Positions 2,904-63,844 of a stretch of DNA of 64,000 nt are shown piece by piece (the stretch's first letter is position 1; each line of letters opens with the position of its first letter). The notes under the pieces are model-generated. The model ran no database searches. It was not told the DNA's origin and was given only the letters and a program-made list of their open reading frames with translations. Both the position numbers and the translations under genes were made by a program. This DNA comes from an uncultured Gemmatimonadaceae bacterium (GTDB lineage: Bacteria; Gemmatimonadota; Gemmatimonadetes; Gemmatimonadales; Gemmatimonadaceae). Location: NCBI GenBank assembly GCA_963790305.1, contig CAWBOC010000002.1:160001-224000 (forward strand), in the 5' to 3' direction.

Positions 2904-3327
2904 CCGACCGTGCGGGCGGGTCGCCGCACGGCTTTCGCCACGCGAGAATGGGGCTCTCGGGGGGTGTGACGCGGCCGTCGGCGACGAACGCGTAGGCAAT
3001 GCCCCGAACCGTATCGCCCTCAGCTGGCTGCCGCTCCAGGTTGATCCCCACGCCGACCGGCCACCAGGTGGGATAGAGAACGAGGCCGGGACCGCCGATG
3101 CGCGCGAACGAGGCGGCATCGTGCCGCGGCGCTCCATCCGTCGTCGACGCTTCGGGCGGTGGCGGTGAACCACGCGCGGTATACCTGGAGTGCCCGGCCG
3201 CCGTCCAGTCGAGCGAGGGTGACCACGCTCCGAACACGAATCCCCAGCACTCGTTAGGGCGCGGGTCGGGCGACTGGGCGGAGAGAGGGTTCGCGACCAT
3301 GGCGAGCAAAAGCGCGCCAAGGTACAC
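2872..3327 (-). CDS. Hypothetical secreted protein
   Basis: GTG at 3327 opens signal-peptide-like YLGALLLAMVANPLSAQ; 3' end overlaps serA by 32 bp. Confidence 0.55.
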   Translation of the reverse strand: MYLGALLLAMVANPLSAQSPDPRPNECWGFVFGAWSPSLDWTAAGHSRYTARGSPPPPEASTTDGAPRHDAASFARIGGPGLVLYPTWWPVGVGINLERQPAEGDTVRGIAYAFVADGRVTPPESPILAWRKPCGDPPARSVTRAAPDERR

Positions 3328-3398
3328 GAGGATGTCCAGGTCGTCGAGGTGATCGAGGATGAAGTCACCTCGATCACCTCGACATCCTCGATCACCTC
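3327..3398. repeat. Inverted tandem-repeat hairpin, 9-mer CGAGGTGAT / ATCACCTCG family
   Basis: cgaggatgt-ccaggtcgt-cgaggtgat-cgagg ... cctcgatca-cctcgacat-cctcgatca-cctc. Confidence 0.85.
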
Positions 3399-3404
3399 TG
3401 CTTC

Positions 3405-3851
3405 TCACGGTCCAATCACCTTCGCGAAACGTCGCCCGGTGTATTCGTAGCCGAGGTGCTGATAGAACGCGTGGGCGTCGGCGCGACGCTCCGCGCTCGT
3501 GACCATGATGCGGCCGCACTGCCAGACGCGCGCTTCGTCCTCCGCCCGCGCGATGAGCAGCCGTCCCACCCCCGCCCGCCGATCGCGTTCCGTGACCACC
3601 AGGGCGATGATCATGGCGACGTCGCTCAGCGACGTGAGCACCGGCATGCAATGCAGTCCCAGCACGCCCAGCACCGTCGCTTCGCGCTCGGCGACGAAGA
3701 CGCGCGATCCCTCGTGGACGAGCAGGCGGGCGAGCCGCGTGCGCACCCCGTCGGGCTGCGATGGATAGCCGAGCTCCCCGAGAAGCGCTGCGATCGCGCC
3801 GGCGTCCTCGATGATGGCGTCACGGACGCGAAAGGTGCTCGAGGTGCTCAA
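3405..3851 (-). CDS. GNAT family N-acetyltransferase
   Basis: ALVV..DRRAGVGRLL acetyl-CoA motif; AHAFYQHLGY. Confidence 0.9.
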   Translation of the reverse strand: MSTSSTFRVRDAIIEDAGAIAALLGELGYPSQPDGVRTRLARLLVHEGSRVFVAEREATVLGVLGLHCMPVLTSLSDVAMIIALVVTERDRRAGVGRLLIARAEDEARVWQCGRIMVTSAERRADAHAFYQHLGYEYTGRRFAKVIGP

Positions 3852-3889
3852 GGTGCTCGAGGGACTGCAGTTCGCACCTCGAGCACCTT
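3832..3889. repeat. Inverted tandem-repeat hairpin, 9-mer AGGTGCTCG family
   Basis: aggtgctcg x3, then gcacctcgagcacctt (perfect 16-bp complement of 3832-3847). Confidence 0.85.
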
Positions 3890-4653
3890 CATCTGCTCCT
3901 CATCCAATGCAGGAACGCTCGCTCGTCAGGCGTCAACGCGTCCGCGCCTTCCGCGGTCACCTTCGCACGAAGGCGGTCGAGCTCCTCGAGGGTCAGCGCA
4001 TGAAGCCCGTCGCGCTTGATGGAATCGAAGTCCGGGGCGCCGGTGCTCACGATGGGAGTGCGCGTTCCGAAGGTCGCGACCTCCATGCGCTTCTTGAACT
4101 TCTGCCGGTCGGAGCGCGCATCGAGCCAGCGAAGATAGAGGTACGCCGCCGCGTAGCCGCCGAGGTGTGCCCAGTGGGCGATCGATCCCCCGACGCTGCC
4201 AGTGCCCGACCACAGCGAGTACAGCGTCGTCACCACCACGAGGACCCGCGCCTCGACGGGCAGAATGCCCCAGATCATGATGCGATCGTGCGGCCAGAAC
4301 ATCGCGTAGGCGAGAAAAACTCCGAAAGTCGCACCAGAGGCGCCCACGATGAAGACGTTGGGCGTGAGGAACGACAGGAGGGCGCCGCCGAGCCCGCTCA
4401 GCAGGTAGAGCACGATGAATCGCGGACTGCCCAGGCGCTCTTCCACGCGCGGACCGAAGAAGTACAGGCTCAGCATGTTGAAGAACAGATGCCAGGGCCC
4501 GGCGTGCAGGAACATGTACGTGAACGCCGTCCACGGTTGCTGAAAGACGTCGCGCGCACGGAAGGCCAGCAGGGCGGGGATCTCTGGCATCGCCGCGCCT
4601 AACGCGAACATCACGACATTGGCGGCGAGCAGCCGCGCGACCCACGGCGTCAT
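3889..4653 (-). CDS. Rhomboid family intramembrane serine protease
   Basis: YMFLH, HLFFNM, GASG (Ser), AHWAHLGG (His). Confidence 0.93.
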   Translation of the reverse strand: MTPWVARLLAANVVMFALGAAMPEIPALLAFRARDVFQQPWTAFTYMFLHAGPWHLFFNMLSLYFFGPRVEERLGSPRFIVLYLLSGLGGALLSFLTPNVFIVGASGATFGVFLAYAMFWPHDRIMIWGILPVEARVLVVVTTLYSLWSGTGSVGGSIAHWAHLGGYAAAYLYLRWLDARSDRQKFKKRMEVATFGTRTPIVSTGAPDFDSIKRDGLHALTLEELDRLRAKVTAEGADALTPDERAFLHWMRSR

Positions 4654-4663
4654 GCCGCCGGTG

Positions 4664-4954
4664 TCAGCGAGCGGGCGGTTGAGATCCCGCCAGCCCGGAG
4701 GTGCGATCGGCCAACAGCTTCGTGGTGAATCGCTGCCCTTCCGAGATGCGCTCGACTTCGACCGCGATCGCATCGACGCCGGCCTCGAGGCGGCCCAGCC
4801 GCTCTTCGATTCTGGAGAGGTTCGGCGAGCCCCCCGAATCGCGTCGGTCGAGCCGACGCGCGATCACGCGCACCAGCGGAAGCCCGAGGACGGTGATCAC
4901 AATGGCGGGGAGCAGCATTTCCATTGTGTTGAGAAAGACGAGCTCGAGTGGCAT
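4664..4954 (-). CDS. Small single-TM protein with coiled-coil tail
   Basis: Hydrophobic N-terminus then ERLGRLEAGVDAIAVEVERISEGQRFTTKLL; coding-like codon bias. Confidence 0.75.
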   Translation of the reverse strand: MPLELVFLNTMEMLLPAIVITVLGLPLVRVIARRLDRRDSGGSPNLSRIEERLGRLEAGVDAIAVEVERISEGQRFTTKLLADRTSGLAGSQPPAR

Positions 4955-5136
4955 CGACGGCTCCGGACATGCTCAGGAGGGGGTGTCAGGCGCGTAGCGT
5001 ACATCGCATACGGGCGGGATGCAACGTTGGTGACACTACTGCCATCGCCGCTCGAAGTTTCGATGGAGCAGGGGATACCGACGGCACCGCGTGACGATTC
5101 CCGCGAGGTACAATCCCGAGCTAGATTCCGCACCAC

Positions 5137-6204: not shown

Positions 6205-6233
6205 GGAGGAATTTCCAATCGACATCCTCCTCC

Positions 6234-6701
6234 TCATTTCTCAGTGCCCAACAATTCAACCTTCCACTCGACGGGAATCCCAGGATCGAGAGAGTCGCGG
6301 ACCGAGCAGTACTTGGTCACCGCCAGCTCCACGGCCCGCTCCGCGTGCTCGCGCTCGATGCCGGCCCCAGTGATGCGGAAGGTGAGCAGGATCCGACGCA
6401 CCTTGCGAGGGACGCGGTCATCGGCGCGCTCCCCAACGACGTCGATCTCCAGCGATTTCACCGGTGTTCGGCGCTTGGCGAGGATGCTGACGACGTCGAT
6501 CGACGAACACGCGCCGAGCGCGCTGAGCAGGACATCGACCGGGCTCTGCGCCACCTTGCCGTGCCCATCCACGCGCAGCGTCGGCCCGCCTGGGCGACCA
6601 GCCTCGAACTCCTCGTCCCCGCGCCAACGAATCACGACGTGATTCGGCGGTCGCACCGCGGCCGGCGCCGACGCCACGGCTGACTTCTCGTCCGGCGTCA
6701 C
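6234..6701 (-). CDS. OsmC/YhfA family protein
   Basis: [13 protein letters not shown] and KYCSV cysteine pair; GTGA overlap with upstream sulfurtransferase. Confidence 0.9.
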
Positions 6702-7594: not shown

Positions 7595-7810
7595 GGTTCC
7601 CTCCCATCAATGGGGTTCTGCGTAGTGGTATGGAGCAGAGTCAGGCGTGTCAAGCTGGCGAGGCATTTCGGGGCGTCCTATACTCCCTCAACCGACGACG
7701 AAAACAGGAACGCCGACGGAGGGCGGAGGTGTTCATCGGGGTACAGACCCTGGTGTGCCCCTATGGTTCAAACGCCTTCACTCTCGTTTCGCGTTCCATC
7801 CAACCCCCGT

Positions 7811-9025: not shown

Positions 9026-9034
9026 CACAATTCA

Positions 9035-9095
9035 GAATGCGGAATACGGAATGCGGTGTGAGGAGCTACTCCGTTCGCATTCCGCATTCCGCATT
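9035..9095. repeat. Inverted tandem-repeat hairpin, 7-mer GAATGCG / CGCATTC family
   Basis: gaatgcg-gaatacg-gaatgcg ... cgcattc-cgcattc-cgcatt between convergent genes. Confidence 0.85.
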
Positions 9096-9100
9096 GCTCT

Positions 9101-9445: not shown

Positions 9446-9456
9446 TTCTCGTTCCT

Positions 9457-9690: not shown

Positions 9691-9794
9691 CAGGGGAACA
9701 ATGGAAGCGCTCCGGCTTACCGGCCAGTGCCCGCGCCAACGGCGGACACTACATTGAATTCCTCACACCTCCCTTCTCGTTCCCTGTAATCTGA

Positions 9795-10118: not shown

Positions 10119-11241
10119 TCGCGCGTCGACCGCGGCTGGGCTTCGGGTCACGGGCGGCGCGATGGTCTATCGGCTGTTCGACGTGGGGTACGAGATCCAG
10201 CTCGACCGCGCGCTGGCGTTGCTGGAAGGCAAGGCGCCGGTGCGCGAGCGCCCGCTGCGCGGCGAAGCGCAAGCGATGCAGATCGCCAATCCGCCGGTGA
10301 GCGTCACGCTCGGCGAAGACCGAGTCGTCATCGACGACCGCTCGTATGACGCGACGATGTCGGCGCGGATCTTCGACTTCGGGGTCGTGTCGCTGCGACT
10401 TCGCGTCGACGCGGGCGCCGCGATTGGGTGGGAGCAGTACTCACGCTTCGGCAATGCCGTGGACGTCGGCACCGACCTCGCGCCGCTCTTTCAGCGGCAT
10501 CTGCAGACGTTGTTCGAGCGCATCCAGCCAGCGATCGAGCGCCCCGCGATTGCCCCGGTCTCGGAAGACTACGTCGTGTTTCGCATTCGCCGTCTCGAGG
10601 ACGCGAACGGTCGCATCGCCTCAGCCGACGCGCTCGGCGACAATGACATCATCCCGCTGCTGCTCAACGAATCCCGACCGCTGTCGGCGGCGGCGCGCCG
10701 CGAGCTGCTCCCACACCGCTTTTCATATTACGGAGACGATCTCACGATCCTCACCTGGGACAACGCGCTCGTCCTCGAGCCGGTGGCCGAAGATACCGAC
10801 GTGCAGTACATCCTGGAGTTCGCCAACGCGCAGCTGCTCGAGCTCCGCTTCTACAATGCGGTGCTCGACACCGAGCTCACGCGCATGTACGACCGTATCT
10901 CCGAGGCGCGCGCCAAGCCCGCCCGATTCTTTCGCCGGCGCTTCACGAATCTGCTGACGCGGCTGCTGTCGATCGTCGCCGATTCCACCGAGCTGGTGGA
11001 GCGCGCGGAGAACTCCCTCAAGGTGACGGACGACGTCTACCTCGCGCGCATCTATTCCGCGGCGCTCGAGATTTTCCGCGGCCGCGCCTGGCGCGCGGGG
11101 ATCGATCGAAAGCTGACGATCATCCGCGAGACCTACGCGATGCTCAACGCCGAGGGCCAGGCCGCTCGCGGCGAGGCGCTCGAGCTGGCGATTGTGCTGC
11201 TGTTCGTGCTGGAGATCGTGTTGGCGTCGTTCGTGAGGTGA
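10111..11241 (+). CDS. Conserved hypothetical protein with C-terminal TM (RMD1/DUF155-like)
   Basis: IFDFGVVS, helical core, C-terminal LELAIVLLFVLEI; overlaps ferredoxin stop. Confidence 0.75.
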   Translation: MIDRASTAAGLRVTGGAMVYRLFDVGYEIQLDRALALLEGKAPVRERPLRGEAQAMQIANPPVSVTLGEDRVVIDDRSYDATMSARIFDFGVVSLRLRVDAGAAIGWEQYSRFGNAVDVGTDLAPLFQRHLQTLFERIQPAIERPAIAPVSEDYVVFRIRRLEDANGRIASADALGDNDIIPLLLNESRPLSAAARRELLPHRFSYYGDDLTILTWDNALVLEPVAEDTDVQYILEFANAQLLELRFYNAVLDTELTRMYDRISEARAKPARFFRRRFTNLLTRLLSIVADSTELVERAENSLKVTDDVYLARIYSAALEIFRGRAWRAGIDRKLTIIRETYAMLNAEGQAARGEALELAIVLLFVLEIVLASFVR

Positions 11242-11375
11242 GGTGCTCGAGGTAGGCGAGGTGCTCGATGTGCTCGAGGTGCAAAAGCAAACGGGGCCGC
11301 CGAAGCGACCCCGTTCGTGTTCATCCCCTGAGAACCTCGAGCACCTCGAGCACCGCGACTACCTCGAGCACCTCA
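11239..11375. repeat. Inverted tandem-repeat hairpin, 9-mer GAGGTGCTC family, 42-bp arms
   Basis: 11239-11280 is the near-perfect reverse complement of 11334-11375. Confidence 0.9.
11290..11315 (-). terminator. Intrinsic terminator nested in the repeat hairpin loop
   Basis: aacggggccgc-cgaa-gcgaccccgtt; A-rich left flank gives a U-rich tail on the minus strand. Confidence 0.7.
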
Positions 11376-11377
11376 GG

Positions 11378-12830: not shown

Positions 12831-12877
12831 GTTACCTCGCGTATCTTCCCGTCAACTCTCACGCGACTCGCATCTGC

Positions 12878-15825: not shown

Positions 15826-16134
15826 TCAAGGGTTTCGGGTGCCTCGCTTTGCGAGCTCCTCTCTCACCGCCCGAAGGTGGCGAGGCCAGACGTGCGCGGC
15901 GTATCGAAAGAAGTTGTCGCGCGCCTCCGCGTCCTCAGCGAGATACTCGGCCAGCGTCCGGTGGCCCTTGAGTACGTTGCACGGGCCACAGGCCGTCACT
16001 ATGTTGCCCGCCGTGCGGTCGCCCCCGCGCAGACGCGGCTGCACGTGATCGAGCGTCAGTGCCGCCGCCGGGTGCACGCGCCCGCAGTAGACGCACCTGA
16101 ATCCGTCCCGCGCGAAAATCTCCTCACGCGTCAT
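15826..16134 (-). CDS. Small HNH endonuclease (McrA-like)
   Basis: RDGFRCVYCG, TLDHVQPRLRGG, NIVTACGPCN; AGGAGG 7 nt before ATG 16134. Confidence 0.9.
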   Translation of the reverse strand: MTREEIFARDGFRCVYCGRVHPAAALTLDHVQPRLRGGDRTAGNIVTACGPCNVLKGHRTLAEYLAEDAEARDNFFRYAAHVWPRHLRAVREELAKRGTRNP

Positions 16135-16459
16135 GGCTGAACCTCCTGATTCGCGTCGCGCGATCGTGCGAGCGGCGCGACGCTTTCTTCTCGATCCCTC
16201 GACGGACGGCGTGCCTCCCGCCCCGGAGGACGTGCCGCCGCGTCTTACCCCTGCCGCCCTCGACCAGGTCCGACGCATGTCCCGCTCCCGCGAACGCATC
16301 CTCGCCAACCTCAATGACATGTACCGCGAGGCGTTCGAGCGCGCCAAGGCGACGCAAGACCAATCGCAGATGGCCGCGCTCGACTTCGCCTATCGGCGTG
16401 AGCAGCTGTACTTCGAGATTCTGCTGGATATCCGAGACGGGCTCGAACGGCCGAGGTGA
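16133..16459 (+). CDS. Hypothetical helical protein (alternative start 16277)
   Basis: Strong codon bias; amphipathic ILANLNDMYREAF...YFEILLDIRD. Confidence 0.7.
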   Translation: MAEPPDSRRAIVRAARRFLLDPSTDGVPPAPEDVPPRLTPAALDQVRRMSRSRERILANLNDMYREAFERAKATQDQSQMAALDFAYRREQLYFEILLDIRDGLERPR

Positions 16460-16545
16460 TCGAGGACGTCGAGGTAGTCGAGGTGAGAGCACCCTCGACG
16501 ACCTCACCTCGATTACCTCGACATCCTCGATAACCTCGACCACCT
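16452..16545. repeat. Inverted tandem-repeat hairpin, 9-mer TCGAGGnnn family
   Basis: cgaggtgat-cgaggacgt-cgaggtagt-cgaggtg ... cctcgatta-cctcgacat-cctcgataa-cctcgacca. Confidence 0.88.
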
Positions 16546-21709: not shown

Positions 21710-21991
21710 ATGCCCAGGTACTTGATCGAGCGGGATCTCACCGGAGCCGGTCAGCTCACCGCGGATGAGCTCCGCGGCATCTCGACGAAGTCATGTCAGG
21801 TGCTTCGCGAGCTCGGGCCGGAGATCCAGTGGGTTCAGAGCTACGTCACCGACGACAAGATCTATTGCGTGTACATTGCCGCCACCGAACGCCTCATTCG
21901 CGAGCACGCGAAGCGTGGCGGGTTTCCGTGCAACCGGGTGAGCGAGGTGCGGGCGGGGATTGATCCGACGACGGCGGAATTACGGCAGTGA
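21710..21991 (+). CDS. DUF4242 family protein
   Basis: MPRYLIER, WVQSYV..DKIYCVY, HAKRGGFP; AGGAG RBS. Confidence 0.88.
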   Translation: MPRYLIERDLTGAGQLTADELRGISTKSCQVLRELGPEIQWVQSYVTDDKIYCVYIAATERLIREHAKRGGFPCNRVSEVRAGIDPTTAELRQ

Positions 21992-22076
21992 GGAGTGGAG
22001 AGTGGGGAGTGGGGAGTGGGGAGCTCGATCATCGAATTCCTCACTCCCCACTCTTCACTCCTCACTCCTCACTCCT
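21987..22076. repeat. Inverted tandem-repeat hairpin, 7-mer G(G/A)GGAGT / ACTCC(C/T)C family
   Basis: agtgagg-agtggag-agtgggg x3 ... tcactcc-ccactct-tcactcc x3. Confidence 0.9.
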
Positions 22077-24277: not shown

Positions 24278-26386
24278 AACGCGGCGATCTCCTGAAAGAC
24301 GCGCTTGAAGTCGTCGATCTGCGGCAGGATCGCGTCCTCCAGCGATGGCGCATACCCGACGAAGGTGTCGGTGGACGCGATTCGCATCACCTGGGGCGTC
24401 CAGCCAGGCGAAGCACTCCTGCGCGATCGCGGCCGCGATCTCCGCGCCGTAGCCCCAGGAGAGCGAATCCTCGTACGCAACGACGACGCGATTCGTCTTC
24501 TTCGTCGAGCTGAACACCGCCTCACGGTCCCAGGGCAGGAGCGTGCGCAGGTCGATCACTTCGACGTCGGGCCCACCGCTCTCCGCGACCTGGTTCGCGG
24601 CCACGAGCGCGCGCTGCACGGTCGCCCCGTAGGTGACGACGGTGATGTCCTTCCCCTCACGAACCACCTTCGCCTTGCCGAACGGGATCATGAAGTTCGG
24701 CCCGGGATACCGCGATTTGTTGTACGTCTGTCGGTAGAGATGCTTGTGCTCGAGGAAGATCACCGGGTCGTCACACCGAATCGCCGTGCGCAGCAGCCCA
24801 TTCGCATCGAGCGCCGTGGCGGGACAGACGACCCGAAGTCCGGGCGTATGCGTGAAGAGCGAGGCGCCGGTCTGCGAGTGATAGACCGCTCCACGGATGT
24901 AGCCGCCGTACGTCGTGCGGATGACGACCGGGGCGGAGAACGCATTGTTCGAGCGCCAGCGCATCGTCGCGAGCTCATCGCGAATCTGCATGTACGCCGG
25001 CCAGATGTAGTCGAAGAACTGAATCTCGACGACCGGCTTGAACCCACGAATCGCCAGACCGATCGCGCGCCCGACGATGTTCGCCTCGGCCAGCGGCGAG
25101 TTGTACACGCGAGTGCCGCCGAACTCCTTCTGCAGCCCCCACGTCACTTTGAAGACGCCGCCCTTGCCCTTCACCTTGCCCATGTGCTGCTCGCGCGAGA
25201 TGTCGGCGACATCTTCGCCGAAGACGAGGATGCGCTCGTCGCGGCGCATCTCGTCCTTCATGCATGCGTTGAGCAGGTCGACCATGGTCGTCGGCTCGCC
25301 CGCGTACTGCGGGTCGTCCTCCGTGTCGAACGCATCGCTCGCCGGATCGACGTCGGGCGAATACACGGCGAAGTACACCGTGTCGGCCGCCGGCTGCGGC
25401 TGGGCGAGCGCGTCGTCGGTCGCTGCCAGCACCTCGGCGTCGGTCTCCTGACGGAGGCGCTCGAGCTCGTCCTCCGTCGCGATCCCTTCCGCGACCAGCC
25501 AGCGAGGAAAGGTGATGATGGGATCGCGCTGCGCCTCCGCCTCACGCTCCTCGGGCGGCTTGTACAGGATCTCGTCGTCGGAAAGCGAGTGCGAGTACGG
25601 ACGAATGACGCGAGCGTGGACGAAAGCCGGTCCCTTGCGTCGGCGCGCGTGGTCGACCGCCTTCTTCATCACGTCGTAGGAGGCGAGCAGATCGCACCCG
25701 TCCACTTCCTGGATGAAGAGATTCGGGAATCCGCTGACGAGCTTCGAGATCGAGCCGCCGGCGGTGTTCACCTCGACCGGGACGGAGATCGCGTAGCCGT
25801 TATCCTCGACGAGGTACACGATCGGCAGCGACAGATTGCAGGCGGTGTTGAGCGACTCCCAGAACTCGCCCTCGCTGGTCGTGCCATCGCCGGTGGTGAC
25901 GAGGACGATCTCGTCCTTCTGGAAACCTTCGGTGATGCCCAACGTCTTGGCGCGGACGATCGCCTCGGCCGACCCGACCGCCTGGAGAAACTGGGTTCCC
26001 GTGGGCGACGAGGTCGAGACGATGTTGAGCTCTTTCTTCCCCCAGTGGCTCGGCATCTGGCGTCCGCCCGAGTTGGGATCGATCGCGGCGCCCACGGCGG
26101 AGTAGAGCATCTCGGCGGCCGTCATGCCGAGCTGAAGGCAAAGGGCGCGGTCGCGGTAGTACATGTAGAACCAGTCGTGCGCCGGCCGCGTGACCATTCC
26201 GGCGGCGGTCAGAATCGCTTCGTGCCCCGCGCCGGAGATCTGAAAGAAGATCTTGTTCTGCCGCTTGAGCTGGATCTCCTTGTCGTCGATCCGGCGCGAG
26301 AGATACATCGTGCGGTATGCCGCAACGAGTAGCGCGGGACTGAGTTCGGAGCCCGCCTTACGCTCCGAGCGCGTTTGAGTTGCCAT
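24274..26386 (-). CDS. 2-oxoacid dehydrogenase E1 alpha/beta fusion, with 1-nt frameshift near 24390
   Basis: [15 protein letters not shown] (TPP), HSLSDD, GEDV, SPLAE, EIQFFDY, DLRTL; natural C-terminus [24 protein letters not shown] is in another frame. Confidence 0.9.
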
Positions 26387-26404: not shown

Positions 26405-26512
26405 CGGAATGCGGAATGCGGAATGCGGATTGCGAGTAGGACCTTCCGGGCGGTGAGGCTCATGACGCCTCGACGGTCTCATATACGAATCCGCATTCCG
26501 CATTCCGCATTC
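26405..26512. repeat. Inverted tandem-repeat hairpin, 7-mer CGGAATG / CATTCCG family
   Basis: cggaatg x3-cggatt ... aatccg-cattccg x2-cattc between divergent genes. Confidence 0.9.
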
Positions 26513-27012: not shown

Positions 27013-27300
27013 CCTTTTCGGGGGTGCCACCGTCGAAAATATGAAAGGCGGACGCGCCGCGCCCTTGCGCCCCGACGTTCCGCTTCGCATTCGTAAGGCG
27101 CGCGGCGACCACGCCCCGTGGGCACCCGCGCCGATCAACGACTGGAGGCACATGAGCGTCGATCGACGACCCTCTTCCGACCCAGAACACCGTCGGCCAA
27201 CCGTCGTCGCCACACGCTGGTGCGCTCCACCCACCACGACACCTCGCCCCGCCCGGGTTCCCCATCCGGCGCGGGGCGACGTGCTTTTCGGCGAGGTGCA

Positions 27301-27702
27301 ATGTCTCGGCACGGCATTCATCGCATCTGCCTCCCCCGCGCGCCGCGTGGACTTCTCCGGCGGCGTCGTTCCCACCTTCGCCACGTCGACTTCAAGCGAG
27401 CGCTCAAGCGCGCCGTAATGCGCGACTGCGGCCGGCGCTGCGTCTACTGCGGCGCCTGGCTCGAGCATGATCATGCGACTATCGATCACGTGCACCCGCG
27501 CGCGCGGGGAGGTATCACCGCGTACGGCAACCTCGTTGCCGCCTGCGCCCCGTGCAACCGATTGAAGGGTGACATGCTGCCGCACGATTTCTTCGTGCGG
27601 TATCCGCTGGCGGGGATGAACTTCCTGTTATACGCTCGCGTCGTTCATCGCGCCTTGAAGCGGGGCGCGCGGAGAGCGGTGAGTCTCGCGTTGGCGGCTT
27701 GA
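27301..27702 (+). CDS. Small HNH endonuclease
   Basis: RDCGRRCVYCG, TIDHVHPRARGG, NLVAACAPCN; GAGGTG just upstream of ATG 27301. Confidence 0.88.
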   Translation: MSRHGIHRICLPRAPRGLLRRRRSHLRHVDFKRALKRAVMRDCGRRCVYCGAWLEHDHATIDHVHPRARGGITAYGNLVAACAPCNRLKGDMLPHDFFVRYPLAGMNFLLYARVVHRALKRGARRAVSLALAA

Positions 27703-27705
27703 ACT

Positions 27706-27833
27706 AGGGGTCAGGAGTCAGGGGTCGGGGATCAGGGGGTGTCCGGGCAAAGGGTTCAGGAGTCGCGCGAGCCGTACTCCTCGAACCTTCGCCCTGACAC
27801 CCCCTGATCCCTGACCCCTGACTCCTGACCCCT
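27706..27833. repeat. Long inverted repeat (~58-bp arms) with outer 7-mer AGGGGTC / GACCCCT units
   Basis: aggggtcaggagtcaggggtcggggatcagggggtgtc... pairs with ...gacaccccctgatccctgacccctgactcctgacccct. Confidence 0.92.
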
Positions 27834-27840
27834 CGTCCGC

Positions 27841-33345: not shown

Positions 33346-33443
33346 ATGTCAGATGTCAGAGTACAGAATTCAGAATTCGGAATGCGCCGGTCCAGGACCC
33401 GAGCAGTCTGAATTCTGAATTCTGTACTCTGACATTCTGACAT
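33346..33443. repeat. Inverted tandem-repeat hairpin, ATGTCAG / CAGAATT units
   Basis: atgtcagatgtcagagtacagaattcagaattcgga ... tctgaattctgaattctgtactctgacattctgacat. Confidence 0.9.
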
Positions 33444-34221: not shown

Positions 34222-34246
34222 GGTAGACCCAGGTAATCAAGGGGTG

Positions 34247-34345
34247 TCGAGGTAATCGAGGTAATCGAGGTAATCGAGGTAATCGAGGTATTCGAGTAGG
34301 CGAGGGGAACGTCACCTCGATCACCTCGATCACCTCGACAACCTC
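34247..34345. repeat. Inverted tandem-repeat hairpin, TCGAGGTAA x5 / ACCTCGATC x3
   Basis: Read directly between convergent genes. Confidence 0.9.
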
Positions 34346-35589: not shown

Positions 35590-36393
35590 TCACGGCACCG
35601 AGTCGAGCACGCGCCGCTTTCCCATCGCATCAATGTCGAACGCGACGGCCTGGCGCCGTCGCGCTTCGGCGCCGCGAACCGTCGCCAGGGCTGTGTAGTA
35701 CTCCAGGTACGCGAACGACGAGATTCCCCCTCGCACGAACTCGTAGCTCGTCACCAGCTCGCGCCACTTGGCGAGCTGATCGCTGACGTCGACGTACAGG
35801 TACGCCTGAAACTGCTCGGCGTCTTCCCAGTTTTCCGCATACCAGAGACGCGTGCCACAATGCGCGGGCTCACCCTTCGAGCCCGCCTGGATCGCCGCCA
35901 GCAGCACCGCGTCGACCACGATGGCGTGCGCGGCCGCGTGATCGCGGTGAATGCTCTCCCGCCAATGCGTGATGATGAGCGTCGGCTTCACCTGACGGAT
36001 GACGTCGGCGACGTAGCGCCTGGCCTCGTCGGTGTTGGGCACTTCGCCATCGCGATACGGGGCGAAGATGACCTCCCCGCCTAACTGGCTCGCGGCTGCC
36101 TCCGCTTCCTTACGCTTCTGCGCGCCGTAGGCGGCGGCGGCGAGCTTGGGATTCCCGCGCTCGCCGAGGCTCAGGTGGAGAATGACGACGCGGTCGCCGA
36201 GCTGCCGCTGCTTGAGGAGCACCGCACCGGCAGTGAGCTCCATGTCGCCGGCGTGCGCGCCGACCGCCAGGATCGTTCGTGGGGCCTGCTGCGCAACCGC
36301 CGACGGCGCAAGCAGGCCGAGCACAAAGAGGGGAGCGAGGAACGAGGACGCAGCAATGCGCTTCCTTCCCCGTTCCTCACTCCTCGTTCTCAT
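35590..36393 (-). CDS. PIG-L family deacetylase, exported
   Basis: GAHAGDME, GERG, RKEA, HRDH; signal peptide. Confidence 0.88.
   Translation of the reverse strand: MRTRSEERGRKRIAASSFLAPLFVLGLLAPSAVAQQAPRTILAVGAHAGDMELTAGAVLLKQRQLGDRVVILHLSLGERGNPKLAAAAYGAQKRKEAEAAASQLGGEVIFAPYRDGEVPNTDEARRYVADVIRQVKPTLIITHWRESIHRDHAAAHAIVVDAVLLAAIQAGSKGEPAHCGTRLWYAENWEDAEQFQAYLYVDVSDQLAKWRELVTSYEFVRGGISSFAYLEYYTALATVRGAEARRRQAVAFDIDAMGKRRVLDSVP
36328..36391. repeat. Degenerate 7-mer (GAGGAAC / GTTCCTC) inverted tandem repeat inside the PIG-L 5' end
   Basis: gaggggagcgaggaacgagga ... ttccccgttcctcactcctcgttctc. Confidence 0.65.
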
Positions 36394-42249: not shown

Positions 42250-42341
42250 GCCACAACTTCAGCGGCGGCTCACCTACGCAACAGATGGAATGGGATGAAC
42301 TGGCCTCGCCGTGGAGCAAGCAGCAAAGCAACGGCTTCTTG

Positions 42342-42411
42342 AACGCAGAGGACGCAGAGGCGCAGAGGACGCAGAGGGAACAACCTCCGCGTCCTCCGCG
42401 TCCTCTGCGTT
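42342..42411. repeat. Inverted tandem-repeat hairpin, 9-mer ACGCAGAGG / CCTCYGCGT family
   Basis: aacgcagagg-acgcagagg-cgcagagg-acgcagagg ... cctccgcgt-cctccgcgt-cctctgcgtt. Confidence 0.9.
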
Positions 42412-42425
42412 AAAAAAAAGGCTCC

Positions 42426-46023: not shown

Positions 46024-46090
46024 AGGTCGTGTCGCAGAATCGTCGGCCGAAACAATCGGCCGAAGCCAGAACCTACGGAGAGGGGTGGCG

Positions 46091-47590
46091 ATGATCGAGC
46101 ATGCAGTGGTGATCGCCGGCGGAGGTCCGACAGGGCTGATGCTGGCAGGCGAGCTGGCGTTGGCGCGGGTCGACGTCGCGATTGTCGAGCGGCGCCCAAG
46201 CCAGCACCTCGCCGGCTCGCGCGCGGGCGGCCTGCACTCACGCACCATCGAGGTCCTCGATCAACGCGGCATCGCGGATCGGTTCCTCTCGGAGGGACAG
46301 GTGGCTCAGGTTGCGGGGTTCGCCAGCGTCCGTTTGGACATCAGCGACTTCCCCACCCGACACAATTACGGGCTCGGGCTGTGGCAGAACCACATCGAGC
46401 GCATCCTGGCCGGCTGGGTCGGCGAGCTGGCGGTGCCGATCTATTACGCCAGTGAAGTCACAGGCTTCACGCAGGACGACACCGGCGTCAATGTCCAGCG
46501 GTCCGACGGCCGGTCGCTACGAGCGCAGTATCTCGTCGGGTGCGACGGAGGACGCAGTCTGATCCGGAAGGCAGCCGGCATCGACTTCCCGGGGTGGGAT
46601 CCGACGACCAGCAGCCTGATCGCCCAGGTCGAGATGACGGAGGAGCCGGAATTGGGCATCCGCCGCACTCCCTCGGGCATGCACGCCCTCGGCAAGGTCG
46701 AGTACGAGATCAAAGACGGCCAGGTGGTCTACAAGCCAGGGGGGACGGTTGGCGTCATGCTGACCGAGTCGCACGTCGGACGCACGAGCGAGCCCACCCT
46801 GCGCGATCTCAGCGAGGGTCTCATCGCGGTTTACGGCACTGATTACGGGATCCACAGTCCCACCTTCATCTCCCGGTTCACCGACATGACTCGTCAGGCA
46901 GCGACCTACCGCCAGGGACGGGTGCTGCTGGCCGGCGACGCGGCGCACGTGCATTCCCCGGTCGGTGGACAGGGCCTCAACACGGGCGTGCAGGATGCGG
47001 TGAACCTGGGATGGAAGCTGGCGCAGGTCGTCAAAGGAATATCGCCCGAACGCCTCCTGGATACCTACCACGCCGAGCGCCATCCGATCGCTGCACGCGT
47101 GCTGCGCAACACGATGGCGCAAGTCGCGCTCATGCGCGTCGACGATCGCGTCGAGGCGTTGCGCGACACCGTGTCCGAGCTGCTGAGCATGGACGAGCCG
47201 CGTAAGCGATTCGCCGCGATGATGTCCGGTCTGGACATTCGGTACGAGCTCGGCGAGGGACACCCGCTGCTGGGCCGACGCATGCCCGACCTCGACCTCG
47301 GCACGCCTAACGGGCCGCGGCGGGTCTTCACCCTGCTGCACGATGCCCGACCGGTGCTGCTCAACCTCGGTGCGCCAGGCGTCTTCGACATCACTCCGTG
47401 GCGTGATCGCGTTCAAATGGTCGACGCGAAATACGATGGGCCGTGGGAGCTTCCGGCCCTCGGGGCGGTCACGCCTCCCACCGCCGTGTTGGTTCGACCC
47501 GACGGATACGTGGCCTGGGTGGGAGACCTGGCCCAGGTGGGGCTCGTCGACGCGCTCACCACCTGGTTCGGACCGCCTGCTGCGCCGTAG
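46091..47590 (+). CDS. Class A FAD-dependent monooxygenase, rifampin monooxygenase (Rox)-like
   Basis: GGGPTG, EVLDQRG, GCDGGRS, GTDYGIHSP, GDAAHVH..GGQGLN, LVRPDGYVAW, WFG. Confidence 0.88.
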   Translation: MIEHAVVIAGGGPTGLMLAGELALARVDVAIVERRPSQHLAGSRAGGLHSRTIEVLDQRGIADRFLSEGQVAQVAGFASVRLDISDFPTRHNYGLGLWQNHIERILAGWVGELAVPIYYASEVTGFTQDDTGVNVQRSDGRSLRAQYLVGCDGGRSLIRKAAGIDFPGWDPTTSSLIAQVEMTEEPELGIRRTPSGMHALGKVEYEIKDGQVVYKPGGTVGVMLTESHVGRTSEPTLRDLSEGLIAVYGTDYGIHSPTFISRFTDMTRQAATYRQGRVLLAGDAAHVHSPVGGQGLNTGVQDAVNLGWKLAQVVKGISPERLLDTYHAERHPIAARVLRNTMAQVALMRVDDRVEALRDTVSELLSMDEPRKRFAAMMSGLDIRYELGEGHPLLGRRMPDLDLGTPNGPRRVFTLLHDARPVLLNLGAPGVFDITPWRDRVQMVDAKYDGPWELPALGAVTPPTAVLVRPDGYVAWVGDLAQVGLVDALTTWFGPPAAP

Positions 47591-47599
47591 CGGGCCGAG

Positions 47600-48067
47600 C
47601 TACCGCGGCCGAAGCTCCCAGAGCACGTTGACGATGACCCACCGGTCGTTCCACCGGGCGACGTGCAGGTAATCGACCCAGCTGTCGGCGTCGACCCGCA
47701 CGCTGGCCGTGTTGCCGAAGATGTCGAGGATGCGAACGTCCTTGCGTTGCTCGGCGACCGGCGTGTCCTTCCCACCGCCGCCACGCGTATTGACGACGAG
47801 CGTCATCGCGCTCTGGTGCCCGAGCACGCGGCGTCCGCGCTGGTCGGTATTCATGATTCGCTTCGCCAGATCCGGGTGAACCGCGCGCTCCATGCGCTCG
47901 GCGTTCCCGGTGTACCAGCCCTCGATGTAATCGAGCGCAGGGGCTCGGATCGCCGCGCTGTCGGCCGCGGACTGTGCGGGCACCATGGTGGGGAGTGCGA
48001 GCGTTGCGATCCAGGCGATCGTGATCGAGATGCGCCTGCTGCGTGGGATGGCGTTGCTTGCTGGCAT
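47600..48067 (-). CDS. Secreted NTF2-like (lumazine-binding-like) protein
   Basis: Signal peptide; LDYIEGWYTGNAERMERAVHPDLAKR; WVIVNVLWE. Confidence 0.85.
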   Translation of the reverse strand: MPASNAIPRSRRISITIAWIATLALPTMVPAQSAADSAAIRAPALDYIEGWYTGNAERMERAVHPDLAKRIMNTDQRGRRVLGHQSAMTLVVNTRGGGGKDTPVAEQRKDVRILDIFGNTASVRVDADSWVDYLHVARWNDRWVIVNVLWELRPR

Positions 48068-58121: not shown

Positions 58122-58133
58122 GACACCGATCCG

Positions 58134-59531: not shown

Positions 59532-61668
59532 CTGGCTGTTGGCGGCCACGCTCGTGGCCGCCGCGGTCCCCGCCGCGCCAGCTCAGGTACCTGACGATGT
59601 CCCTGAGCTGGCGCGACGCGTAGAGGTTCGGCGCACGACATTCGGCGTTCCCCACATCAAGGCCGAGGATCTTCGCGCCGCCGCCTATGCGCTTGCGTAC
59701 GTCCAGCTCGAGGACCACGGCGCACGGGTCGCGATCGGGCTTCTCCGGGCGCGCGGCGAGATGGGTCGTTGGTTCGGGCGCGACAGCATCGAGAGCGACT
59801 ACACGGCCAAGCGAGACTACGCGCTGGCGGTCGAGCGGTACGCGCAAATCGATCAACCGACGCGCGACGTGTACGAGGGATTTGCGGCGGGTGTCAACAG
59901 ATACGTCGCGCTGCATCCCGATGAGTTTCCATCCGGGTTCGCGCCCAACTTCACCGGCTACGACGTCGCTGCGCGTGACGTGAGCTCGGCGTCGCCGGCG
60001 CAGGCGCGGCGGTTTCTCGCCCGATTCGAGCCGCCCCGGCAACGCGGACCAGGCGACGTCGCGCCGCCGTCCGATGAAGGCGTCGATGCCATCGAGGAGG
60101 GATCGAACGCATGGGCGTTCGCGCCCAGCCGCACGAAATCGGGGCGCGCGATTCTTCTTCGCAACCCGCACCTCTCGTGGACCGCGGGATACTACGAGGC
60201 GCACGTCACCGTGCCGGGCGTGCTCGATTTCTACGGTGATTTCCGGATCGGCGGGCCCTTTGGTGTCATCGGTGGCTTCAATCGCCACCTCGGTTGGGCG
60301 ACGACGAACAACGCGCCGGACCTCGATGAGATCTACGCGCTCGAGGTCGATCCGACGCTCCCGGACCATTTCGTGTTCAATGGGACGTCGCTTCCCGTGC
60401 AGCGGGAGCTCGTCACCGTCGCGTTCCGGAATGGCCCCGGCGTGTCCACCGAGACTCGTGAGGTGTGGCGAACGCCGCTCGGGCCGGTCATTCACCGCGA
60501 CAGCGGCAAAGTGTTCGTGCTTCGTGCCGCCGCCGAAGGCGAACACCGCGCGGGCGAGCAGTTCCTGCGGATGATGCGAGCGCAATCGCTCGCCGAGTGG
60601 AAGGACGCGATGCGCGTTCGGGCGCGCGTGAACTCCAATTTCACCTACGCCGATCGCGCCGGAAACATCTTCTACGTGTGGAACGCGTCGATTCCGGCGC
60701 TGCCGCACCCCAGCGGGGGCGACACGACCGCGGTGCCGGCGCGCGGGATGGACGAGGTGTGGACTCGTTATGTGCCGTTCGACTCGCTGCCGCAGCTGCT
60801 CAATCCGCGAGGTGGCTACGTCCGGAACGAGAACGACCCGCCCTATCACACCAATCTCCGACAGGTGCTCGACCGCTCCCGGTATCCGGCGAACTTTCCG
60901 GAGCCACTGCTGCGTCTGCGCAGCCAGCTCAGCCTCGCCCTCGTCGACCCGCCGCGGAAGCTGAGCCTCGAAGACGTCGTCGCGCTCAAGCATTCGTACC
61001 GGATGCTGCTTGCCGATCGCGTGAAGAACGACCTCGTCGCGGCGGTCCGCGCTTCGTCGCCCACACCGCCGGTGAGCGAGGCGATTGCGCTCCTTGCCCA
61101 GTGGGACAACACCGCGGGCCACACGAGCCGCGGCGGCGTGCTCTTCGAGGTCTGGTGGCGCAAGTACGTCGAAGGAGCCGACCCCGACACGATGTACGCA
61201 CAGCCGTGGTCCGTCGACGCGCCGGCCACCACGCCGCGGGGACTCAAGCATCCCGCGCGCGCCATTGAGGCGTTCACGTGGGCGGTCGAGGAAACGACGC
61301 GTCGTCACGCGCGGTACGACGTCGCCTGGGGCGATGTTCACCGCGTCCGCATCGGGACCGTCGACGTGCCCGTCGGCGGCTGCGGCGGAGCGCTCGGCTG
61401 CTTCCGCGTGCTCAACTTCAGAACCGATCCTGACGGAAAACGCTCGGTCGTGGGCGGCGACGGCTGGGTCATCGCCGTCGAGTTCACCGATACGCCGCGC
61501 GCGTACTCGGTGCTGGCGTACGGCGAGAGCGCACGCGAGGACTCGCCGCACCACGCCGATCAGGCCGAGATGTTCGCCCGCGGCGAGATGAAGCGCGTCG
61601 CGTTTACCGAGCGTGACATCGAGGCGCAGACGATACGCCGCTACCGGCCGGGCGCGATCGCTCCCTGA
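59524..61668 (+). CDS. Penicillin acylase family Ntn-hydrolase (S45)
   Basis: FGVPHI, GSNAWAF (beta-subunit Ser), NPHL, YAD..GNI. Confidence 0.93.
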   Translation: MRSWLLAATLVAAAVPAAPAQVPDDVPELARRVEVRRTTFGVPHIKAEDLRAAAYALAYVQLEDHGARVAIGLLRARGEMGRWFGRDSIESDYTAKRDYALAVERYAQIDQPTRDVYEGFAAGVNRYVALHPDEFPSGFAPNFTGYDVAARDVSSASPAQARRFLARFEPPRQRGPGDVAPPSDEGVDAIEEGSNAWAFAPSRTKSGRAILLRNPHLSWTAGYYEAHVTVPGVLDFYGDFRIGGPFGVIGGFNRHLGWATTNNAPDLDEIYALEVDPTLPDHFVFNGTSLPVQRELVTVAFRNGPGVSTETREVWRTPLGPVIHRDSGKVFVLRAAAEGEHRAGEQFLRMMRAQSLAEWKDAMRVRARVNSNFTYADRAGNIFYVWNASIPALPHPSGGDTTAVPARGMDEVWTRYVPFDSLPQLLNPRGGYVRNENDPPYHTNLRQVLDRSRYPANFPEPLLRLRSQLSLALVDPPRKLSLEDVVALKHSYRMLLADRVKNDLVAAVRASSPTPPVSEAIALLAQWDNTAGHTSRGGVLFEVWWRKYVEGADPDTMYAQPWSVDAPATTPRGLKHPARAIEAFTWAVEETTRRHARYDVAWGDVHRVRIGTVDVPVGGCGGALGCFRVLNFRTDPDGKRSVVGGDGWVIAVEFTDTPRAYSVLAYGESAREDSPHHADQAEMFARGEMKRVAFTERDIEAQTIRRYRPGAIAP

Positions 61669-61691
61669 ATGGGAGCCAGCGAAGCGCCCGC

Positions 61692-62207
61692 TCAGAACGC
61701 GATTCGCCCTCCGATCGATAGCGACCCTTCGCTCATCGGCACGACGGAGAGGCGCATCGGCACCGCCGCGTCGCCCCAGCGCTCGAAGCTGCCGACCAGG
61801 AGTCCGATGACGCTACCGCCCACCACGCCAGTGACGGCGCCAAGCACGGCGGCCCCCCGCTTGTCGACCCAGTAGCCATTGTCGTTGCCCGCCGCGTATC
61901 CGACCACGCCGCCGATCGCCAGACCAAGGAGAGCGCCCCATCCCGCATTTGCGCCGCGACGGGTGCCACGGCTGACCTCGAGGCGCTGAACGAGCGAGCG
62001 CGAGATCGTGATGTCACCTCCGCCGCGCTGACGGCGGACCATCAATGCCGAGTCGCTCACCGCGATCAGTTGCCCGACTATCACCGGCGATGGGTCCGCG
62101 GGCGTGATCCTTACTCGTGCACCCCGGGGAAGGTCCTGGGCTGTCTGCGCCGACGCCACTTCGACAACCGCCAGCAGCGCGAGCAGGACCATTGATATCG
62201 CTCTCAT
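61692..62207 (-). CDS. Hypothetical exported protein with glycine-zipper helices
   Basis: GGAGG RBS, signal peptide, GxxxG repeats. Confidence 0.7.
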   Translation of the reverse strand: MRAISMVLLALLAVVEVASAQTAQDLPRGARVRITPADPSPVIVGQLIAVSDSALMVRRQRGGGDITISRSLVQRLEVSRGTRRGANAGWGALLGLAIGGVVGYAAGNDNGYWVDKRGAAVLGAVTGVVGGSVIGLLVGSFERWGDAAVPMRLSVVPMSEGSLSIGGRIAF

Positions 62208-62323
62208 GGTGACCTCCGCATGAGGACGCCGACAACCTAGAAGGCTGGCGACCCCGGCGGTCTACGTCATTGTACGTAGCAGTCATTGCGTCCCAGCGCC
62301 GGCCGTGTGCAGTATTGCCCGCC

Positions 62324-62449
62324 ATGAGCAACGATCCACGCGTGCCGCGGTCGCGCAGCTGGGTGAGCCTGGTCCTTCGCGACATTCAGTTCTGGATCCC
62401 GGTCGCGGTGCTGATCGGCGGACTGTTCGTCCTGCGCTGGATTCATTGA
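62324..62449 (+). CDS. 41-aa single-TM small protein
   Basis: MSNDPRVPRSRSWVSLVLRDIQFWIPVAVLIGGLFVLRWIH*; stop overlaps TTG start of the transporter. Confidence 0.65.
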   Translation: MSNDPRVPRSRSWVSLVLRDIQFWIPVAVLIGGLFVLRWIH

Positions 62450-63735
62450 CCCACCCCGCGGCGTCGACGGTCGACCCATCCCGCCTCCGCCGTTTGCAGG
62501 GGCTCGGGATGATCTGCGGTCTGACCGCCGGAGCGTGGTTAGGCGCCGCGGAGGCGCCAACCAAGCTCGTGACGACCGGCGTGTCTCCCTTCGTCGTCTC
62601 GCTCGCCATGGTGGTCGGCGTGTTCCTCGCCCGGTGGAGCGTGCCCGCCCTCATTCACGGCACCTCGTACATCGGCGCCGATCTTCGTCAGGCGCCGCAC
62701 CTCATCGTGTGGGGCGTGCTCGCCGGGTGCCTGTGGGCGGTCGCGAATACGCTCACGATCTTCGCCGTGCGCGACGTCGGGCTCAGCATCGCGTTCCCGC
62801 TCTGGAACAGCAACAGCCTGCTCGGGATCCTGTGGGGGGTCGTACTGTTCAAGGAGCTGCGGGGGGCAGACTGGCGGCGGTGGGCCGGCGTGCTCGGCGG
62901 CGCGCTGCTGATGTTCGCCGGTGCAACGGCGCTCGCCGTCGCGTCATCGAGCCAGGTCGCGGGGCGCGATGCGTTGCGAGGGATGATCGCCGCGCTCGCC
63001 GCCGGTGTGCTCTGGGGCACGATGTACATCCCCTATCGCAAGGCGTACCTGACGGGCATGAGCCCGCTCTCATTCATCACCTTCTTCACCCTGGGCGAGC
63101 TCGGGATGATGGGAACGCTCGCCGTGGTGTACACCGGCGGCGTCACTCCACTCTGGCAGGAGCTCGCCGCGACTCGGCAAGTGCTGTTCTGGTTCCTCCT
63201 CGGCGGATTCGTCTGGGTCATTGGCGACCTGTTTCAGCAGTATGCCGTGAAGTACGCGGGAATCACGCGCGGCATTCCGCTGTCGAACACGAATCAGCTC
63301 TGGGGTTTGCTCTGGGGAGTGCTCGTCTTCGGGGAGCTGCTTGGCGGAACGCGCGCGCTGTACACGCAGGTGATCGGGGGGTCGCTGGTGATGGCGATAG
63401 GCGCGGGCGTAATCGCCCTCTCGTCGGTGCGCGAGGGCGAGCATCGGCGGTGGCAGGAGGCTGCCGCTCGCGAGAGCGATCGCTACGGTGTCGATCCAGC
63501 CTACACGCGCGCGCGAGCCGCCGGCGAAGAGGTCAGCACGGCGAGACACAAGCGAACGTGGGTGGATTGGCTGGTCGTCGCCCTCGCCACCGCCGTCCTC
63601 ATCGCGTTTGCCGCGATCGCCGAGGCCCCGCGCATTGCGCTGCGATGGGAGTGGGCGGCCGCGCTCACCGGAGTGATGCTCGCGATCCTCGTCGGGTCCG
63701 GGCTCACCCTCTGGCGGACGACGCGATTCAGCTAG
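62446..63735 (+). CDS. GRP/DMT-family sugar transporter
   Basis: Duplicated helix motif GLSIAFPLWNSN..WG..FKEL / GITRGIPLSNTN..WG..FGEL. Confidence 0.85.
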   Translation: MTHPAASTVDPSRLRRLQGLGMICGLTAGAWLGAAEAPTKLVTTGVSPFVVSLAMVVGVFLARWSVPALIHGTSYIGADLRQAPHLIVWGVLAGCLWAVANTLTIFAVRDVGLSIAFPLWNSNSLLGILWGVVLFKELRGADWRRWAGVLGGALLMFAGATALAVASSSQVAGRDALRGMIAALAAGVLWGTMYIPYRKAYLTGMSPLSFITFFTLGELGMMGTLAVVYTGGVTPLWQELAATRQVLFWFLLGGFVWVIGDLFQQYAVKYAGITRGIPLSNTNQLWGLLWGVLVFGELLGGTRALYTQVIGGSLVMAIGAGVIALSSVREGEHRRWQEAAARESDRYGVDPAYTRARAAGEEVSTARHKRTWVDWLVVALATAVLIAFAAIAEAPRIALRWEWAAALTGVMLAILVGSGLTLWRTTRFS

Positions 63736-63740
63736 TAGCA

Positions 63741-63844
63741 GAGGGTGTCGAGGGTGTCGAGGGTGTCGAGGTCGTCGAGGTGATCGAGGGAACGTCGTTG
63801 CCTCTCCTCGATCACCTCGACGACCTCGACACCCTCGACACCCT
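63741..63844. repeat. Inverted tandem-repeat hairpin, 9-mer TCGAGGnnn family, perfect 39-bp stem
   Basis: 63751-63789 is the exact reverse complement of 63806-63844. Confidence 0.93.

Follow-up and report, generated by a model that had tools for sequence, protein, structure and literature searches.

The window analysed here, a 64,000-nucleotide (nt) stretch from the genome of an uncultured Gemmatimonadaceae soil bacterium (contig CAWBOC010000002.1, positions 160,001 to 224,000), contains 13 hairpins of the form (unit)n-loop-(reverse-complement unit)m, whose arms consist of short tandem units. Our results suggest that these hairpins probably belong, as members lacking a gene, to some ten repeat families, that each family matches the arms at a single small four-helix-bundle or GxxExxY gene located elsewhere in the genome, and that each encoded protein likely recognises the word of its own family and promotes copying or overwriting of the hairpins. 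An earlier note, made from the sequence alone, had listed the 13 loci and proposed a common generating mechanism or structural function behind units unrelated in sequence. All 13 loci were confirmed at the coordinates given below by tandem arrays, inverted repeats and inspection, and the proposal of a common mechanism gained support; the description of the units as unrelated proved overstated, and the arm polarity reported as constant turned out to be a trend of the lineage.

The hairpins were counted across the genome (4.31 Mb in 13 contigs, 66% G+C, 94% complete, with a tmRNA tag that agrees with the Gemmatimonadaceae) with a detector that paired Tandem Repeats Finder (TRF) arrays of equal period, with reverse-complementary units, within 200 nt of each other. 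The 421 array pairs obtained were merged into 384 elements, compared with 0 and 1 in two order-5 Markov simulations, so that this genome-wide repeat search, a check that the earlier note had proposed, lay far above the composition-matched controls. Control pairings in the same genome gave 8 mirror pairs and 46 complement-only pairs. Period 7 accounted for 208 of the 421 pairs and period 9 for 189. The assembly contains at least one likely indel error; however, an origin by chance or through assembly artefact is hardly credible in view of the 384 elements against 0 and 1, and of the same sites and families in independently assembled genomes. The detector picked up 10 of the 13 window loci; those at 3327, 3832 and 36328 were missed, having one arm below the TRF threshold, yet were plain by eye.

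Families were assigned from a hand-made table, drawn up after the arms had been seen and with unit variants lumped; letters A to G denote families of the window loci, H, I, J and K families outside the 13, and P, Q, R and S families found mainly in relatives. Ten families (B, 93 elements; A, 81; C, 70; H, 54; E, 15; I, 15; F, 14; D, 11; J, 9; K, 4) made up 366 of the 384 elements, 8 others belonged to two small families without a gene in this genome, and 10 were unclassified. The words do differ, but each represents a genome-wide family (about 12 families) and is not private to one locus, and many of the heptamers fit one loose frame, G-purine-purine-purine-pyrimidine. The purine-rich arm came first in 381 of the 384 elements, and the three exceptions resemble chance pairs. 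Because inverted repeats read alike on both strands and family members share descent, this polarity comprises about 12 independent cases. It was weaker elsewhere (20 of 26 armed cassettes in the phylum and 25 of 35 across phyla) and is a lineage trend, no law.

Profile searches of this genome identified six PF05635 genes (four helix bundle, TIGR02436), which belong to the Avd-like protein family of 23S rRNA intervening sequences (IVS), and four PF13366 genes (GxxExxY, TIGR04256), which encode a nuclease fold. A profile built from these ten genes detected no further gene in the genome, just a second piece of one. All six bundle genes lay between inverted arrays, each with its own unit: family D at locus L001, C at L002, E at L003, A at L004, H at L005 and B at L006. 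The arms were 7-mers in four of these cassettes and 9-mers in two. Among the GxxExxY genes, L009 was enclosed by family K arms, L007 and L010 had an arm before and a hairpin behind (families I and J), and L008, at a contig start, had a family F hairpin behind. The ten gene-linked families, one per gene, covered the 366 elements given above and 12 of the 13 window loci. A cognate gene of family G was located outside this genome, at L261 in the relative G125, and in another relative, G128, a contig begins with a partial gene that is followed by a family G array. When own arms were compared with those of other members, self-matching was clear in families E, I and F and weak in the large families.

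A co-occurring nuclease, reverse transcriptase (RT) or REP-associated tyrosine transposase (RAYT; REP, repetitive extragenic palindrome) had also been suggested as a thing to look for. The GxxExxY nuclease-fold genes and the bundle genes were found elsewhere in the genome, and the 94%-complete assembly yielded 0 matches to PF01797, the Y1 HUH transposase of RAYTs, and 0 to the RT model PF00078. In size, position and overwriting, the hairpins do behave like REPINs (REP doublets forming hairpins), and Y1 transposases occur in three of nine genus genomes and RTs in two of five. Nevertheless, it is very unlikely that they are ordinary REPINs or MITEs (miniature inverted-repeat transposable elements) moved by a RAYT or IS200 enzyme, a DDE transposase or an RT, since this genome has no RAYT or RT (DDE families were outside the search), the Y1 and RT genes of the relatives have no paired arrays around them, and target-site duplications are lacking. 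Two specific assignments were rejected: a diversity-generating retroelement, with 0 PF00078 matches in this genome and the Avd model below cut-off, and a DDE-transposase MITE, with no target-site duplication and no near-identical recent copies (again with DDE families outside the search).

The relation between families and genes was examined in nine genomes of the genus including this one (completeness, 71-100%), from which 53 of 55 PF05635 matches were catalogued; after removal of a weak match and a short row, the tree had 51 rows. It contains seven clades whose members have a single arm family in common (families P, E, H, Q, R and S, and the one of L078/L086), and the rows of families A and C did not resolve as clades. 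The family P pattern had 78-221 matches in the five genomes holding its cassette and 0, 0, 0 and 1 in the other four. Family R had 190, 132 and 92 matches in three holders and 0 in the six other genomes; family Q had 102 and 50 in two holders and 0 in five genomes; and family G had 139 (G128) and 121 (G125) in two holders and 2-11 elsewhere apart from G124. Because families come and go with their genes, it is likely that these genes are what spreads or rewrites the hairpins, with no known transposase involved. At one site (L006, L258, L261, L262, L265 and L266), a fast-evolving bundle gene was seen in six genomes with at least three arm words, a ready-made series in which specificity residues could be sought.

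Bundle loci were then compared at wider ranges, with 27 loci submitted from the genus, 35 from the phylum and 80 from across phyla; those lacking a flank were dropped, and locus L049 (genome G134) was excluded from every count. Paired inverted arrays were present at 18 of 25, 26 of 32 and 35 of 74 bundle genes, respectively, and in 0 of 22, 0 of 29 and 0 of 64 control flanks about 1 kb away. Among cyanobacterial plasmid loci, five of seven had both arms and two of seven had the right arm only within the stretch viewed. One such cassette (L268, plasmid of Anabaena sp. 90) lies within a CRISPR operon, with cas6 on one side and cas4 on the other. A degenerate heptamer-hairpin pattern, which covers only some units, occurred in 43 of 121 phylum genomes, namely 42 of the 83 that have PF05635 and 1 of the 38 that do not; for the order alone, the values were 41 of 75 with the gene and 1 of 10 lacking it, and 18 of 21 where at least six such genes were present (kin are not independent in either comparison). 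The pattern had no match in five bundle-gene genomes of other phyla, in which the units differ. In a blind test, the heptamer known from Xanthomonas was sought in triple array in 401 genomes of another class and was found in one (8 matches); the only bundle gene of that genome, itself split, lies between inverted arrays of the Xanthomonas heptamer.

The same co-occurrence might arise if the genes were passengers, that is, if host processes or an unrecognised factor spread the hairpins and a small gene had been taken up into the loop of one copy per family. Three of the four largest families are those with the broken bundle genes described below, and this genome has no gene for family G or for the minor families, to which 8 elements were assigned, as passengers would allow. 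However, chance can hardly explain why every repeat family should have taken up a gene from one of the same two protein families, in many phyla and on cyanobacterial plasmids (both arms in 5 of 7), and the hairpin pattern is nearly absent from gene-less genomes (1 of 38). We therefore regard the passenger explanation as rather improbable.

The position of the elements was determined relative to genes predicted with a simple custom gene finder: 368 of 381 lay between genes and 12 inside. Among spacers of at least 40 nt, 127 of 322 convergent, 199 of 1374 tandem and 42 of 485 divergent ones were occupied, so that all three contexts occur, as had been described for the window, but unevenly (39%, 14.5% and 8.7%). 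A stop codon was overlapped or lay within 15 nt in 257 of 309 elements. The reported scarcity of U-tails held genome-wide: a U-tract followed the stem on the sense strand in 9 of 101 and 9 of 98 tandem elements, and in 4 and 1 of 127 convergent ones. Assignment to Rho-independent terminators was rejected on this feature.

Orthologous sites were compared for 12 of the 13 window loci (21987 was not included), with families tallied by eye. Of 71 site-by-genome observations, 29 showed the same broad family, 27 another family and 13 none or a decayed element, and 2 were unclear; a swap of family was seen at least once at 10 of the 12 sites. Nested elements were found at three, in G122 at 11239, in G124 at 63741 and in G123 at 26405. 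Cassettes and gene-less hairpins also alternate. A family H cassette of G128 (L092) stands where this genome has a family H hairpin devoid of a gene, the site of a family A hairpin of this genome is taken by a family C cassette in four genomes, and family P cassettes occupy the site of a family J hairpin of this genome, with both flanks mapped in four genomes and one flank in a fifth. In five loci of other genera (L050-L054), no such arrays were found before the HIT gene.

These positions are also those expected of RNA signals selected by the host, in which case the hairpins would be immobile 3′-end stabilisers or terminators bound by the small proteins acting as regulators, and their arms would change in place by slippage, fold-back correction and gene conversion while the specificity of each protein drifts. 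The strong bias toward convergent spacers and stop codons, the continued occupation of sites across species (56 of 71) and the single-copy inner hairpin at 11239, which persists while the related 9-mer arm units around it differ, are in line with this explanation. All five protomers of Avd contact an RNA stem-loop in the published accounts (PMC10053308; 10.1101/2023.10.23.563531), and RNase III cuts the IVS element of Coxiella, for whose open reading frame (ORF) a role in mobility is only guessed at in the report of that element (PMC4990558). Against it, stem mismatches had no clear preference for the transcribed strand (G-U versus A-C, 388 versus 347, p = 0.14), RNA tetraloop motifs were not enriched on the sense strand (the counts were flat and small), 42 elements lie in divergent spacers, and swaps between 7-, 8- and 9-mers, nesting and empty sites require insertion rather than drift. 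An origin as host RNA signals thus appears unlikely, if less so than the alternatives discussed above. As for the substrate, the position of the hairpins favours transcripts, whereas the symmetry of the mismatches does not.

If the proteins drive the hairpins, each would act in trans on its own arm word, and hairpins would be copied or overwritten, in the way proposed for RAYTs and REPINs, just 3′ of stop codons, where insertion may be tolerated or the hairpin may be useful as a transcript 3′ structure. The bundle protein may act as a pentamer that contacts a folded single strand along the 3.5 to 5 units that make up an arm. Two relatives of known structure, 2GSC and 2RLD, each contain five chains in the entry, and the Xanthomonas bundle protein is described as a toroidal homopentamer. 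The median number of units per arm was 3.4-5.3 in bundle families, 2.5-3.8 in GxxExxY families and 4.3-4.7 at cassettes, which fits one unit per subunit without proving it. GxxExxY proteins belong to the PD-(D/E)XK family and retain an acidic residue and the ExK motif, so they could themselves cut folded DNA, and would do so for their own families. The bundle proteins have invariant Q, R, S, E and G residues, a set biased by the search patterns. In their families, host repair or recombination enzymes would cut, recruited by the ring much as Avd serves an RT.

Several observations weigh against this role for the proteins. In families A, B and H, which account for 228 of the 384 elements, the bundle gene is frameshifted or truncated relative to its orthologues, against a background of one split gene in 71 window-orthologue queries from two genomes (about 26,800 aligned residues). 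Because that single background gene looks like an assembly indel, assembly errors are possible in these three genes as well; taken at face value, their sequences indicate that the families may now be orphaned. The copies are old: the median identity to the nearest copy was 0.74-0.85 in six families, and only 2 elements reached 95% or more. Family C, whose gene is intact, was the best conserved of the four large families (0.85 versus 0.74-0.79), which is suggestive only. No clean empty-site junction was found in the comparison of relatives, and four DNA sequencing runs contained just fragments of relatives and no strain-level empty allele. Target-site duplications were not seen; those of 2-8 nt occurred near shuffled levels (32 versus 23, 5 versus 6, 4 versus 1.3, then 0), with element ends taken from stem alignments, by which a self-complementary dinucleotide would stay hidden. 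The match between genes and families is also incomplete. Family Q has 10 matches in G121 and 13 in G126, and G124 has 62 family G matches, with no corresponding cassette found in these genomes. Moreover, 39 of 74 cross-phylum bundle genes have no paired arrays by the rule used, only 5 of 24 GxxExxY loci are enclosed by arms, 41 of 83 bundle-positive genomes are without the degenerate pattern (which covers some units), and one genome (G059) has hairpins and no bundle gene above cut-off. To our knowledge, no catalytic activity is known for PF05635, and a host enzyme is the likely cutter in the bundle families for that reason. Recognition of the arms by these proteins is likely and their cleavage by GxxExxY proteins possible, and co-occurrence alone does not show whether a gene is driver or passenger.

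A general route in which new elements insert into the loop of a stem already present was rejected, since outer stems specific to the site were confined to family E and the GxxExxY families and were not seen in A, B, C, D and H. Among arm pairs with long gaps (13 listed, four inspected by eye), family B and H arms at C7:189542-189910 and C1:50608-50892 of this genome enclose 212-299 nt of other sequence. The first apparently holds a short ORF, and arms may thus carry non-cognate cargo. A subfamily of family C (C1:154367, C10:17529 and others in this genome) can adopt a T-shaped fold with two inner hairpins closed by three-base loops, and had no strand bias relative to transcripts (7 versus 7). 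Three-base loops of this kind are very stable in single-stranded DNA.

The window hairpins of families C, D and E and four of those of family A lie between convergent or tandem genes. The family A hairpin at 11239..11375, in a convergent spacer, encloses the single-copy inner hairpin, which four relatives retain as well; over these five genomes, the arms around it come in five 9-mer variants. Another family A hairpin lies in a tandem spacer (16449..16541), where four of the five relatives seen have families R and P. Two more occupy convergent spacers, at 34242..34343 and at 63741..63844; in G124, another element replaces the left arm at the latter site and the right arm remains. The family D hairpin (7-mer) at 21987..22076 is also in a convergent spacer. 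The family C hairpin (7-mer) at 27703..27836 separates convergent HNH and NAD synthase genes, and the site has the same family in three of seven relatives and another in four of seven. Its inner part is common to a subfamily and has 22 matches in the genome, so that the loops, described as unique, are not so here; the loop at 11239 has one match. The family E hairpin (7-mer) at 33346..33441 is in a tandem spacer, 3′ of a penicillin-binding protein gene, and no element was present at the site in G123 and G128.

The remaining loci belong to families A, B, F and G. Family B hairpins (7-mer) lie at 9035..9096, in the spacer where a kinase gene and a tRNA-binding gene converge (G124, G125 and G128 have other families there), and at 26405..26512, between divergent dehydrogenase E1 and HIT genes, where five of eight relatives have the same family and three of eight another, one of these nested inside decayed family B arms. 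The family F hairpin (9-mer) at 42336..42417 has a unit matching the repeats beside the GxxExxY gene L008, and three of four relatives have other families at the site. The family G hairpin (7-mer) at 36328..36386 is degenerate; as this genome has just 2 matches to the pattern and lacks a cognate gene, it is likely a relic. The loci were mostly intergenic, as first described, except for two of family A. The hairpin at 3320..3398 (9-mer) falls, in frame, within the predicted 5′ end of a minus-strand gene (2872-3408), whose GTG at 3408 overlaps the stop of the GNAT gene; the site is element-free in G121, G123 and G126 and has an 8-mer family in G122 and G127. This gene has a signal-peptide-like start, and G121 and G126 keep the gene start without the hairpin. 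The arrangement is reminiscent of Rickettsia palindromic elements. The short hairpin at 3832..3885 overlaps the predicted start of the minus-strand GNAT gene (3405-3851), occupying the position of the ATG of the relatives, so that the only possible start here is a TTG within the arm; four of eight relatives are element-free at this site.

Rfam gave no match within the window. Two HNH-domain genes (15826-16347 and 27118-27702) lie near hairpins; they are not enclosed by arms, and no link was seen. In G128 and G124 (L150 and L151), a family F GxxExxY cassette is located directly 3′ of the orthologue of the gene at 46085-47590. Because the family F cassette of this genome sits at the start of contig C5, positions 47590-47600 of the window are a rearrangement or assembly breakpoint. 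At 24392, one extra base fuses the frame of dehydrogenase E1, which is 703 aa long in two relatives, into an ORF of 1049 aa, and contigs of two public runs without this base indicate that it is likely an assembly error.

Among known systems, REPIN-RAYT is the closest counterpart. RAYT genes are single-copy and non-jumping, and REPIN populations shrink without them, according to the account available to us (10.1101/2021.07.10.451892); REPINs at one position change with the predominant RAYT, as stated for REPORTH (10.1101/2024.10.14.618302). Similarly, we found hundreds of diverged extragenic hairpins in several families with two inverted units each, one single-copy cognate gene per family at conserved sites, a population that tracks the gene (with families Q and G as exceptions), and overwriting of one family by another at one orthologous site. 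Unlike in REPIN-RAYT, the partners are four-helix-bundle or PD-(D/E)XK-family proteins rather than HUH tyrosine transposases, the arms are tandem 7-10-mers rather than REP palindromes, and the bundle gene lies inside one long inverted repeat. The present hairpins are not members of that system because no RAYT is present in this genome. The GTAG/CGTC REP superfamilies (Di Nocera et al. 2013, PMC3733652) likewise lie 3′ of genes and in tandem or convergent spacers, may supply a stop codon and are in some cases inside ORFs, but, as far as that description goes, have no tandem-word arms and are tied to tyrosine transposases.

Other systems share the bundle protein or the heptamers. In the Coxiella 23S IVS with S23p, the available description (PMC4990558) gives a PF05635 ORF, terminal inverted repeats and tandem heptamers before the start codon, and the six bundle cassettes of this genome are built alike. 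Unlike such elements, which are located in a 16S/23S rRNA helix and bear an ORF, the window hairpins are ORF-less; they and the six cassettes lie among protein genes, and gene-less copies are dispersed by the hundreds. The Avd protein of diversity-generating retroelements forms a related pentameric barrel, and two of the six bundle genes gave weak, sub-cut-off matches to NF033474. The heptamers of Xanthomonas (Rehm et al. 2015, PMC4692102) form arrays of about four units, with 70 and 75 inverted pairs per genome. In that report, Xanthomonas and Nostoc heptamers are read as G-quadruplex motifs with one unit per organism, and the portion accessible to us names no partner gene; several of the units found here, in contrast, have no G runs. 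Heptamer arrays of Beggiatoaceae are likewise described without a partner gene in the text available to us (PMC4679880). The short tandemly repeated repetitive sequences of cyanobacteria are also heptamer repeats.

In the open-access literature, no paper linking PF05635 or PF13366 genes to dispersed repeats was found. The hairpin system is REPIN-like with unrelated proteins; its architecture has a precedent in Xanthomonas, to judge from the available text (PMC4692102), and the link to genes was not found in print. The one-to-one census of families and genes in one genome, the presence/absence tests across the genus, the blind test and the swaps at orthologous sites are what the present analysis adds. 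TIGR02436 and TIGR04256, two very large families of unknown function, gain specific candidate ligands. Since the ligand of each gene can be read from the sequence next to it, a single genome offers matched and mismatched pairs with which binding and cleavage can be tested directly, and a small ring with an evolvable repeat specificity would be a useful tool. In the host, the hairpins may shape transcript ends, as about two in five convergent spacers carry one. More broadly, though we hold this wider proposal only tentatively, the system could be a bacteria-wide, transposase-free counterpart of REPIN-RAYT, in which an Avd-like pentameric ring reads a 7-9-base word five times along the arm of a hairpin and directs the writing or overwriting of hairpins, word and protein co-evolve, the repeats share a common origin and GxxExxY nucleases are a second driver, independent of the first, in the same niche. 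If true, this would supply a cause for heptamer arrays described, in the reports available, without one (PMC4692102, PMC4679880) and for the ORF of the 23S IVS (PMC4990558), and would give a single origin to the heptamer excess of bacteria, the Xanthomonas and cyanobacterial arrays and the ORF-bearing rRNA IVS.

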